This document shows positions 41,301-44,300 of a DNA stretch of 45,010 nt, piece by piece. The DNA is taken from the IMG/VR virus record IMGVR_UViG_2917870735_000003; one strand, given 5' to 3'. Each line of letters starts with the position of its first letter. The first letter of the stretch is position 1. This DNA comes from a virus. Taxonomy: Duplodnaviria > Heunggongvirae > Uroviricota > Caudoviricetes. Made by a program: the position numbers.

Positions 41301-44300
41301 TTTTGTTGACCACTTCAACGTTGACCAGGCTGCCAGCGGCGTTGCCTACAAAGAGCGGATGAATATACCGGTAATTGCAGAACAGGTAGCCCGTGAGCAA
41401 CCGGAGAACCTGCACACCTATTTCATGGAACGGCTACGATACTGGCCGGCGTTGAATTAATCCACATGATGTGCAAGGGGCAATATCAGCATCCTCAGAG
41501 TGATGGATTGTCACCCGCGGAACAATTTTATCTGCTAGCTGTATGAAAAAACAGCAATACAACTTTTGCTGACTTTCCACCGTTAACGCGACACAACCTT
41601 TGTTCCTGGGCTTCACGTTGCAGAGCCGGTAATCTCCGTCTCTTTAAATTAAAAAGACGGAGACTATTAAAAACTCATTAAAACATCAGGAAACAACAGA
41701 TTCCCCGTAAAACGCTACAGCCTGTGCAGACTGGGAGTCCATATCATCATGGAGATCTCTGGAGTATGGGAGGGAGTTGACTGTCGATATAAATATACTG
41801 TCATTTTCTAAAGTGAAAATTTCTGATTCGAGACTACCAATATCACCACGTACAGGATTAGTCCACCCACTAAACAGTAAAAATCCCCATTCCTGAAAAA
41901 GCCCGGAATTCACTTCACGTTTTACATCATGAAACATTTCTCCCGTCAGTTCATCGAATGGGACATTATTGATATCGCGTCGTGCCGGGACAGTCCCTTT
42001 TTTATCCTCAATCCAAAACAATGCATTGTAAAATCTGTCCGACGTTGCGGTACGAGGTTTAAAGAAGCGATAAGGTTTAATTAAATAAGATGACACATTT
42101 TTCCCTGTGGCTTTATCCTTCGCAAAAATAACAAATGTTTTACCAATGCAACTTTCATCAATATCATTTGAAAATGACACCACGCCGTCCTGATTTACAG
42201 TCAGCGAATTGTCTCCCGCATTGGTGACAACACTCCAGTCCAACGTATTATTATTGACAACATCATTGTCAACCACCATCTGAAATGTCGCCCCTGGAAA
42301 TAATGTTTTCGGGAATGAACCATTAGCCATGTCTTTTTTTATATCGAAAACATGGTGGCTCACTAGAACACCGGTAATTTTTGGCATAAAAAACTCCTTA
42401 TTTGTTTAATTGAAATGCGATCAATAAATTCGATCACCAGAGAGATATTATTACTTTTACAAGAATAAATGTTGTTATTTGTTTATTATAAAACAATCAT
42501 CACCCAGAAAAGAAAAAGATGCAGCTCGTTAACAAAAACCTTTGTGGCATATTAAGGTTGTGTCGCGTTAACGGTGGAAAGTCAGCAGATAAAATTGTTC
42601 CGTGGGTGACAGCCATTACCGCGAAGGCATATTGCAAGGGGCGTTGCTTGTGGTCGATTCCTCACTCACTCCAGTTGATGGTTCGCTGCTTGTATGTGCT
42701 ATAGAGGAGGAATATCGCATAAAGAGATATCGGAAGCATCCGCGCCGCTTCAGGCGTGCGCCTTACGAGTTTGGTGAGTACATCGCGTTACTGAGCCGCC
42801 AGGATGATGCACTTGTGCGCTGGCGTATAAAATCGATCAGCAGAAAACGTTGCGGTAAGTGCGGCGAGAGAGTTCCTGTTAATTCATGCCCGTGTAATGG
42901 TGACTCACAATGCTGGGTGACCAAAGGCTGATTCGAATTTAAGAACTGAAAGAACACCAAGCCGCCTGATGGCGGTTTTTTATTGGAGACAAGAAATGTC
43001 AGATTTGGCTATGAAGATTTTGAAATGGCAATCGACTGGCGATGTTGGCATCAGTAGCGCAACTCTTGCCTCAATCGCATGTGGACTGAAAAAGAATATC
43101 TATGGTCATCACTTCGGCGCTCCACATGACGCAGCCGATTTCCGGCGATGCGTTGCGCTTGTCGAGCAGATTCCAGAAATCAGAGATTCATTCGACAAGG
43201 TTGCAAAGCGCGTTCCGGCATTCAAAGGCATCCTCAACGAATGGGATTCCCTCGTTGCTCTGTTGAAGTCTGAAATGAAGATACACGGAAACAAAGCACC
43301 AGAGACTTACAGAAGAATTAGCGAACTACGCAAGGACTAACCATGGAATCACACAGCCTCAAACCCAATGAGGCCTGTTAACCCCCCCCTTTCATTCCAG
43401 CACCGGAGAAAACAATGAGCGAAGTTAACTTAATTGTGCCCAATGACTGGGTGACAGAGCAAAAACTGATCGAAATTACAGGTTTACGCCCAGGAACCAT
43501 TGAGAGAGCACGTAAACAATCCTGGCTTGTCGGTCGTGAATATCTCCATGTTGCACCGGACGGTATTCCAAAAGAAAACAGCGAATGCATGTATAACCGC
43601 AAGGCTATCGACCAGTGGGTTGAAAGTATGTCAAAAAAACAGCCTGGTGCGCGTCGATGAAGAACCGTTTATGCTTAATACGCTCTTGGGCGTCAGGAGG
43701 GAACAATGGCTAAGACAGCATACCCAACAGGCGTTGAGAACCATGGCGGATCACTCCGCATATGGTTTATGTATAAAGGCACACGAGTACGGGAAAGTCT
43801 CGGTGTGCCGGATACACCAAAAAACAGGAAAATAGCTGGCGAGCTACGAGCGTCTGTTTGTTTTTCCATTAAGACGGGTAATTTCGACTATGCCGCTCAG
43901 TTTCCGGACTCTCCCAACCTGAGAAAATTTGGTGCGGAAAGTAAGGAAATTACCGTCGCAGACCTGGCTGAGAAATGGCTGGATCTGAAAAAGCTGGAAA
44001 TCAGTACCAATGCGATGGGGCGTTACAGCTCCATTGTAAGAAATATGGTTCCCCGAATCGGAGGCAACAGACTTGCATCTGCTGTGACCCAGGAAGAACT
44101 GCTGTTCATACGAAAGGATTTGCTGACCGGATATCATGTTCTGAAACGTGGGCAAAAAACACCCATTAAGGGACGTTCCGTGCCAACAGTTAATAACTAC
44201 ATGAACACCATGGCGGGGATGTTTCAGTTCGCAGCCGACAGCGGATACATCAAAGAAAATCCGTTTGCAGCCATTTCGCAACTGAAGAGATCACGAACGG

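Follow-up and report, generated by a model that had tools for sequence, protein, structure and literature searches.

Insertion sequences of the IS6 family end in short inverted repeats that are related to each other and begin with a GG dinucleotide. They make 8-bp target duplications that abut these tips, and are known to generate inversions (PMC7986276). Here we describe a locus in which remnants of such an element surround a single gene. The locus lies in a 45,010-nt viral sequence (IMG/VR record IMGVR_UViG_2917870735_000003, Caudoviricetes), called the window below, which is a lambdoid prophage. In this window, a gene for a 233-aa protein (paralogue B, here also called the cargo gene) is bracketed by long inverted repeats, the arms. 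An initial annotation of the sequence had proposed three readings, namely a non-autonomous cassette bounded by terminal inverted repeats (TIRs), an invertible segment, or a recombination scar. We consider it likely that two IS6 right-end remnants bracket a captured gene, that this gene was later inverted via the arms, and that the locus is an ordinary scar of mobile DNA.

The inverted repeats around paralogue B are real. A repeat search of the window matched inner arm blocks (41567-41600 and 42554-42587) over 34 nt with 100% identity, and outer arm blocks (41509-41536 and 42584-42611) over 28 nt with 96% identity (27/28). The left arm (41509-41600) measures 92 nt and the right arm (42554-42611) 58 nt, and no further copy of either was found in the 45-kb window. 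By our estimate, the chance of a perfect 34-mer pair within 3 kb would be around 3000^2/4^34, far below one expected pair. As initially described, the enclosed 957 bp hold the cargo gene as the only ORF. The small outward-reading ORFs noted at the arms are also present (41434-41616, minus strand, and 42602-42931, plus strand), but the second, described as an S24-domain ORF, is a chimera with only about 47 HumD residues. A search for outward promoters in the arms gave a single 9/12 match (TTAACG-16-TAAAAT at 42568-42595), present in the short arm only, which we do not count as meaningful.

The arms derive from the ends of IS6-family elements. When 41440-42612 was compared with plasmids by blastn, matches in 164 records were confined to the first 160 nt and always corresponded to the 3' ends of IS6-family elements, with 75-83% identity among the matches listed. 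The matched elements include ISEas1 and unnamed copies of Serratia, Yersinia and Klebsiella. At the DNA level, the left remnant (41440-41598) is 80-83% identical to the 3' ends of several IS6 elements, ISEas1 among them, and for two annotated IS6 copies the alignment spans the last 105 nt of the transposase gene up to the right end of the element. Positions 41442-41546 are open without stops and encode 34 residues, 29 of them identical to the C-terminus of an IS6 transposase (which ends ...LAGIELIHMIRKGQYQHPQSDGLSPAEQFYFLAA*). The frame ends at a stop in the homologous position, and the catalytic part is absent. The earlier statement that no transposase is nearby is correct for intact IS6 transposase genes, which are missing from the window and from the 5-13 kb of DNA surrounding each related locus, but the left arm and its flank are themselves the remnant of a transposase gene.

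Both IS tips (...GCGACACAACC) face the cargo. On the left, the last position of the IS end ...CCGTTAACGCGACACAACC is 41598; on the right, the reverse complement of this end begins at 42556. In both cases, homology between the arms continues for 2 nt after the tip. The tip sequence GGTTGTGTCGCGTTAAC, which is the reverse complement of 41582-41598, is similar to that of ISEas1 (GGTTCTGTCGCATTAAG) and of a Serratia IS6 element (GGTTGTGTCGCGTTAACGG), and has the terminal repeat typical of the family, including the GG dinucleotide. Because the direction from transposase to tip points at the cargo on both sides, the arms correspond to the inner ends of two separate IS copies, and not to the outer ends of one element. 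The left ends of the IS6 copies are gone, and right-end fragments of 159 and 56 nt remain, so these are remnants rather than elements of ~700-890 bp. The 8 nt adjoining the two tips, TTTGTTCC and TTAATATG (read outward), are unrelated, with no 8-bp target duplication. Judged from these alignments, one IS6-family insertion sequence was present in two copies of opposite orientation, of which the arms are the truncated ends, and the parent element appears to belong to an ISEas1-like clade, as an IS6 member that is otherwise unsampled.

The IS6 remnants and their cargo are embedded in P1-type DNA. The fragment on the left, hot', is 90% identical to positions 1418-1539 of a P1-like plasmid (L001; loci and reference sequences are given by our working numbers) and matches Pfam DNA_pol3_theta (3e-21). 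The fragment on the right, humD', is 86% identical to L001 1819-1957, with matches to Pfam Peptidase_S24, PHROG UmuD-like and phrog_536. In P1-like plasmids hot and humD are adjacent. The matching pieces lie 279 bp apart there versus 1169 bp here, which indicates that the IS'-cargo-'IS fragment replaced 279 bp of hot-humD. The replaced part consists of the hot 3' end, the LexA-controlled humD promoter (P1 LexA box at L001 1680-1699) and the humD 5' end. No complete P1-type hot-humD module is present in the locus; it retains internal fragments only and has lost the intergenic LexA-box region. Microhomology at the junctions is patchy (ACT/GGCCGGC on the left, GACA/CCAT on the right between IS6 remnant and humD').

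The humD scar is older and more widespread than the IS6/cargo insert, since an E. coli WAT prophage at torS (L020 3734-3841) has a humD' remnant of 84% identity that shares the 3' joint but lacks the cassette. It starts there at the equivalent of window position 42641, with an unrelated 204-aa gene upstream. On the 3' side of humD', the window is without a 167-bp piece (at 42746/42747) that every other related locus has right after humD', and the chimeric ORF 42602-42931 (plus strand) fuses the HumD residues to the C-terminus of a PHROG-536 'transcriptional regulator'. On the other side of the locus, the tip of an IS911-like end abuts hot', and its left side is fused to a truncated ea22-like ORF. 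The IS911 end was identified by megablast matches to IS911/ISEc52 3' ends and aligned to an annotated IS911 right end (L029 1601-1648). It is the third mobile-element remnant within the same 1.5 kb, and is partly deleted in L005 and wholly in L016.

Related loci were recovered with the exact cargo protein and a 25-mer of the arm, which gave 11 distinct loci including the window. The sources were two NCBI assemblies (L004, identical to the window, and L005), a metagenome contig (L009), seven IMG/VR contigs (among them L012, identical to the window) and the GTDB representatives of Escherichia whittamii (L018) and Escherichia sp. E1V33 (L019). All 11 loci are in prophages of non-coli Escherichia wherever the host is named, and the hot'/IS6' and IS6'/humD' junctions are the same in all of them. 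The prophage background varies. Integrase neighbours are of at least two types (Arm-DNA-bind_2 type versus lambda type); L005 has an integrase of another type and sits next to a pectinesterase gene, which carries the annotation ybhC in a similar prophage of E. coli, and L018 is a prophage remnant next to torS. The same junctions in different backgrounds argue that the whole mosaic moves between phages, and not a cassette from arm to arm. As a separate observation, the inverted cargo of L018 (375-1736) is cut after ~120 codons and joined to a 5'-truncated integrase gene beside torS.

The module was not found outside this group. None of 5,426 complete E. coli genomes contains it, and it is likewise missing in the phage collection and in the JGI metagenomes. 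The exact arm 25-mer identified only the same cassette (seven IMG/VR contigs and two GTDB genomes, 0 in JGI metagenomes), an arm 19-mer only IS6 relatives with at most 83% identity, and a search of viral contigs with the cargo protein gave the same seven contigs back and nothing else. An insertion sequence with this end was not present elsewhere in the cassette-carrying GTDB representative genomes. The initial annotation had raised the possibility of the same arms around different cargo, of empty sites or of other insertion sites; none was found in the collections searched.

The passenger segment occurs in both orientations. Orientation was read in the assemblies from four landmarks of 25-30 nt per locus, one in each flank and one at either side (terminator or promoter) of the passenger. 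In three distinct loci, the left flank is next to the terminator side, namely in the window (with the identical L004 and L012), L005 and L009. In the other eight (L010, L011/L016/L026, L013, L014, L015, L017, L018 and L019), it adjoins the promoter side, with the passenger on the opposite relative strand. The cargo gene is antisense to the early-left (pL) operon in the window and sense in the eight inverted loci.

Orientation follows the phylogeny of the passenger. In a tree of single nucleotide polymorphisms (SNPs) for loci with the complete passenger between both tips (L011/L016 and L018 were not placed), the window and L005 are identical over 957 bp, L009 is the outgroup at 35 differences, and the placeable inverted loci (7/7) form one clade with 8-13 differences from the window. 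Assembly error is an unlikely cause of the orientation difference, because the arms are shorter than a sequencing read, because left and right arms differ by SNPs and an indel, and because orientation follows the passenger SNP tree. On this tree, a single inversion suffices to explain the orientations. As the truncation junctions are common to both forms, the flip postdates the loss of the transposase genes from both IS copies. We also considered Logan contig L006, which ends inside both arms, as a sign of heterogeneity, but an exact inverted repeat of 34 nt would cause such ends in any assembly at k=31, so that they are not informative in this respect.

The length difference between the arms has to be interpreted in another way when IS6 elements and the related loci are compared. 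It had been described as a 31-bp insertion in the left arm, but is actually a 34-nt deletion in the right arm, as the long form matches intact IS6 elements and loci with two long arms exist (L005, L014 and L026). Two short arms are found in L009, a long left and a short right arm in the window, and a short left and a long right arm in five inverted loci. In the long allele of L018, an 8-nt repeat, TGCTGACT, is present at both deletion end points, a classic slippage substrate. The inner 46 nt beside the tip are identical in all long arms, and all 34 nt kept by the short arms match. From these alignments, exchanges can be placed in the inner 46 nt, but at no finer resolution. The right arm of the window differs from that of L005, although their cargo is identical.

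In 41533-41570 and in the equivalent arms of L005, L010 and L013-L019, a 19-nt patch occurs in five alleles, although the modules are otherwise ~99% identical. The patch sits between the TGCT(GACT) repeats that bound the deletion, and can form alternative small hairpins; folding for hairpin covariation gave mixed results. It could be a hotspot of quasi-palindrome mutation or an import from other IS copies. The long arm also contains a LexA-box-like sequence, CTGTATGAAAAAACAG (41539-41554), a perfect CTGT-N8-ACAG motif that overlaps with the stop codon of the transposase and agrees with the P1 humD operator (L001 1681-1696) at 14/16 positions. Short arms lack this motif; among the arm alleles, a1 and a4 retain it, whereas it is disrupted in a2 and a5. 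LexA control through this sequence was rejected, since ~0.5 such motifs per window are expected by chance, the sequence aligns with ordinary IS6 sequence, and two alleles have lost it. The similarity is probably fortuitous.

Together, the above observations fit the recombination-scar reading of the initial annotation, with the arms as truncated inverted IS6 ends spliced into a P1-type hot-humD fragment. We propose the following history. The passenger gene would at first have lain between two inverted copies of one IS6-family element, whose right tips pointed towards it. A fragment that began 159 bp within one IS and extended at least 90 bp into the other would have been spliced into P1-type hot-humD in place of the 279 bp, presumably through illegitimate joints at the level of microhomology; the outcome would be the same if full IS copies had been inserted and then shortened by two deletions. 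The mosaic as a whole (IS911 end, hot', IS6', cargo, 'IS6, humD') sits in the pL region of non-coli Escherichia lambdoid prophages, and would have spread between prophages through ordinary phage mosaic recombination. After the truncation of the IS copies, recombination between the 58-92-bp inverted arms, with a perfectly identical inner block of 34-46 nt, would have flipped the 957-bp passenger at least once. The arm alleles may have been shuffled further, and a 34-nt slippage deletion between the TGCT(GACT) repeats may have given the short arm.

The flip occurred most likely by homologous recombination between the arms. Either the host RecA or the RecT/exonuclease system of the prophage (36.6-38.1 kb) may have provided the enzyme. 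The flip would have no designed regulatory role, because gene, upstream region and terminator flip together.

Several observations count against this history. Plasmids, phages, GTDB representatives and JGI metagenomes yielded neither an intact parent IS with more than 83% identity nor an IS-cargo-IS progenitor, so that the composite origin is a reconstruction. Homologous exchange would have had only a short stretch of identity to act on, 34 nt between a long and a short arm and 46 nt between two long arms. Arm alleles follow neither the flanks nor the cargo tree consistently, and therefore several exchanges are needed, by gene conversion between arms or by recombination between prophages.

The inversion might also have been catalyzed by an IS6-family transposase acting in trans from an intact copy elsewhere, at the right tips and independently of RecA, either by a conservative end-targeted reaction or by inside-end transposition. 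In support of this, inversions by IS6 elements are known (PMC7986276), and both arms keep the complete right terminal repeat, the GG tip and ~45 nt of subterminal sequence, identical across loci and arms. When L005 is compared with L014 or L026, arm alleles stay with the flanks, which places the exchange within the inner 46 nt including the tip. However, homologous recombination would be just as likely to produce an exchange in this interval. The lack of an intact IS6 transposase gene in the window and in the 5-13 kb around related loci, the lack of another IS with this end in the cassette-carrying GTDB representatives, and the only ~80% identity of the nearest known relatives all speak against a source of transposase. 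The IS26 transposase acts mainly in cis, which is a further point against action in trans. We therefore regard this explanation as quite improbable.

Arm diversity would also be consistent with two orientations that reflect independent acquisitions, or a double-crossover replacement from a donor with full IS copies around the cargo. The five long variants in the 19-nt patch, incongruent with flanks and cargo, fit an imported pool of IS copies, and truncated arms could pair with either IS copy of the donor, giving either orientation. Independent capture is excluded by the identical truncation junctions in all loci, and the collections searched contained no donor with this cargo or with IS copies that were still intact. 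A replacement would still need homologous exchange within the same arms, and would differ from the inversion proposed above only in the partner molecule. This scenario appears very unlikely. The same holds for the idea that the retained IS6 right ends are still active recombination sites (for a trans-acting IS6 transposase or another recombinase) and make the cargo a reversible cassette. If they were, the orientation relative to pL would tune the expression of the cargo or of the downstream xis-int genes, and the locus would be a switch built from IS ends without transposase.

A programmed phase-variation switch, in which a serine invertase (Hin/Gin/Cin/Pin), a tyrosine invertase or the phage integrase controls the invasin-like cargo gene, is extremely unlikely. 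It would agree with the presence of both orientations among closely related prophages (3 versus 8 distinct loci), with the co-direction of gene and pL operon in the inverted form, and with the tyrosine recombinase gene int at a distance of only 1.1 kb. However, no hix/gix-like 26-bp site (TTATCNNNAACCNNGGTTNNNGATAA with up to 3 mismatches) was found in the window, and no invertase or serine recombinase gene is among the neighbouring ORFs. The integrase families beside the module differ between loci, so that no recombinase travels along, and the joint flip of upstream region, gene and terminator would make no classical on/off change. Orientation is also clade-specific on the cargo tree, where one event suffices, unlike in a fast switch. 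The invertible-segment reading of the initial annotation is thus valid in an evolutionary sense, with the cargo opposite in 8/11 loci, but the assemblies compared gave no sign of a dedicated invertase or of switching within a population.

The 10-bp direct repeat that was reported just outside both arms, TGCAAGGGGC, is present in exactly two copies in the window (expectation 0.19; at least two copies in 1/100 shuffles), but neither copy abuts an arm, and both are within older coding sequence. The distance to the arm is 27 nt on the left and 21 nt on the right. Among the 10 other loci with an aligned left flank, the site of the left copy reads CGCAAGGGGC in 8 and TGCAAGGTGC in L005, and is unchanged only in L016. 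We considered the repeat as a target-site duplication and rejected this because the copies lie away from the arms, within transposase and humD codons, and vary among loci. The pair is a chance repeat. Insertion of a non-autonomous TIR cassette, similar to a miniature inverted-repeat transposable element, between hot and humD with a 10-bp target duplication would account for long near-perfect inverted repeats around one gene and a 10-nt direct repeat outside both, but is scarcely credible, since the IS tips point inward, the 10-mer is 21-27 nt away in older, variable coding sequence whereas IS6 duplications are abutting and 8 bp long (PMC7986276), the insert replaces 279 bp instead of being cleanly added to the P1 arrangement, and the outer junctions are the same in 11/11 loci, with no other cargo or insertion site found. 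In conclusion, nothing in the data points to a new type of mobile cassette or to a switch dedicated to this gene.

The cargo protein is similar to invasins. It matches Pfam Invasin_D4 (1.6e-8), and an AlphaFold model based on 15 homologues (mean pLDDT 72.5, above 80 in the N-terminal Ig-like domain, weaker in the C-terminal half) was matched by Foldseek over its whole length to invasin (1cwv, E 1.5e-11) and to the C-terminal fragment of intimin (1f00). According to this model, the cargo would be a free-standing invasin/intimin module that resembles the D4-D5 receptor-binding superdomain. By eye, no signal peptide or membrane anchor is apparent in the sequence, and the protein had no PADLOC or PHROG match. 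Relatives with 70% identity occur in L007 (region 5001-7034) and L008 (region 299-2335); they have no arms and are encoded directly upstream of a gene for a 422-424-aa Scabin-like ADP-ribosyltransferase, which hints at the cargo as a binding or partner subunit of a toxin system. The homology with these relatives runs to 42499.

G+C content drops to 0.32-0.44 across the passenger region. A hairpin just downstream of the cargo stop codon is probably the terminator of the gene, and the upstream region presumably holds a promoter of its own that flips with the gene, although no strong consensus promoter was scored on the cargo strand of 42388-42555. A paralogue in the nin region (paralogue A, 29403-30125, plus strand) encodes a 240-aa protein 43% identical to the cargo, next to a gene similar to Bro-N/P22 antirepressors, and no comparable inverted repeats were found to flank it.

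The IS'-cargo-'IS structure lies within the early-left operon, 0.8 kb upstream of xis. Coordinates of the locus and of the surrounding prophage are given in Table 1. The same operon contains a solitary DndB-like gene of low G+C content (38229-39293, plus strand; Pfam DndB 3.8e-46, PADLOC DndB 4.3e-37), and other dnd genes were not seen nearby.

Table 1. Features of the locus and of the surrounding prophage (window coordinates)
Feature	Position	Strand	Remarks
Tail and head genes	up to ~23 kb	-	
Q, nin region, P, cI-like repressor	cI-like repressor at 34185-34940		after tail and head genes
Early-left (pL) operon	gam, recT, exonuclease gene at 36.3-38.1 kb	+	gam, recT and exonuclease gene come first
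Early-left (pL) operon, continued	xis 43415-43660; int 43706-45010		DndB-like, TraR-like and ea22-like genes, followed by xis and int
IS911-like (IS3 family) end, last 47 nt	41272-41318	+	right tip ...CACTTCA at 41318
hot' (P1-type DNA polymerase III theta homologue)	41319-41438	+	internal fragment, both ends cut
Left IS6-family remnant	41440-41598	+	last 34 transposase codons, spacer, right terminal repeat; tip 41598 beside cargo
Left copy of TGCAAGGGGC	41472-41481	+	MCKGQ codons of IS6 transposase remnant
34-nt stretch in left (long) arm, deleted from right (short) arm	41537-41570	+	bounded by TGCT direct repeats
Passenger segment between IS tips	41599-42555	.	957 bp; unit seen in both orientations
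Hairpin	41630-41666	.	18-nt arms, 89% complementary
Cargo gene (paralogue B)	41686-42387	-	233 aa
AT-rich upstream region of cargo gene	42388-42555	-	G+C 0.32
Right IS6-family remnant, short allele	42556-42611	-	inverted, with 34-nt deletion; tip 42556 beside cargo
humD' (P1-type UmuD'-like S24 gene)	42608-42746	+	internal fragment; part of chimeric ORF 42602-42931
Right copy of TGCAAGGGGC	42633-42642	+	ILQGA codons of humD'

The locus illustrates how a prophage gains an extra gene together with pieces of the insertion sequences that flanked it in the donor. Because the insert is nested in P1-derived DNA beside a third IS remnant, each joint is readable. It also suggests that IS remnants of only 58-92 nt suffice to flip a gene during the divergence of close prophages. 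For annotation, such repeats resemble cassette ends or inverton repeats, but are neither. The cargo, which is similar to invasin/intimin D4-D5 and has relatives beside a Scabin-like ADP-ribosyltransferase, may merit more attention than the repeats.

Among known systems, the locus is most similar to IS6/IS26 structures such as in-trans replicative products and compound-like transposons, with two inverted IS6-family copies around a passenger and right tips that point inward. The tips also share the GG dinucleotide and a related terminal repeat with these elements (PMC7986276). In contrast to such structures, the copies here are only 159 and 56 nt long, without transposase gene, outer end or checkable target duplication, the element is ~80% identical to catalogued relatives, and the location is a prophage rather than a resistance region. 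The IS26-type pseudo-compound transposon or translocatable unit has two intact IS copies in direct orientation, whereas the copies here are inverted and truncated.

As in inversions between inverted IS copies or other repeats, the segment is present in both orientations in related genomes, without a dedicated recombinase. However, the repeats here are very short remnants (58-92 nt with an identical core of 34-46 nt) in place of full-length IS copies, and the inverted unit is one 957-bp gene cassette. The locus shares with invertible switches (Hin/Gin/Cin/Pin, fimS and the invertons of gut bacteria) the inverted repeats that flank a segment found in two orientations, but it has no invertase or crossover site, the gene flips with its upstream region, and orientation differs between lineages but is not known to differ within a population.

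The cargo is also similar to phage morons, the extra genes of lambdoid prophages that are transcribed autonomously. It is a single gene of low G+C content that has an upstream region and a terminator hairpin to itself, located among early-left genes and transcribed in the opposite direction in the window. Unlike in morons, the borders are recognisable IS remnants in P1-derived DNA, so that the route of acquisition is readable, and the orientation is polymorphic. The locus thus involves no new mechanism, and is a new example of a well-known kind of event, brought about by an IS6 member that is otherwise unsampled.

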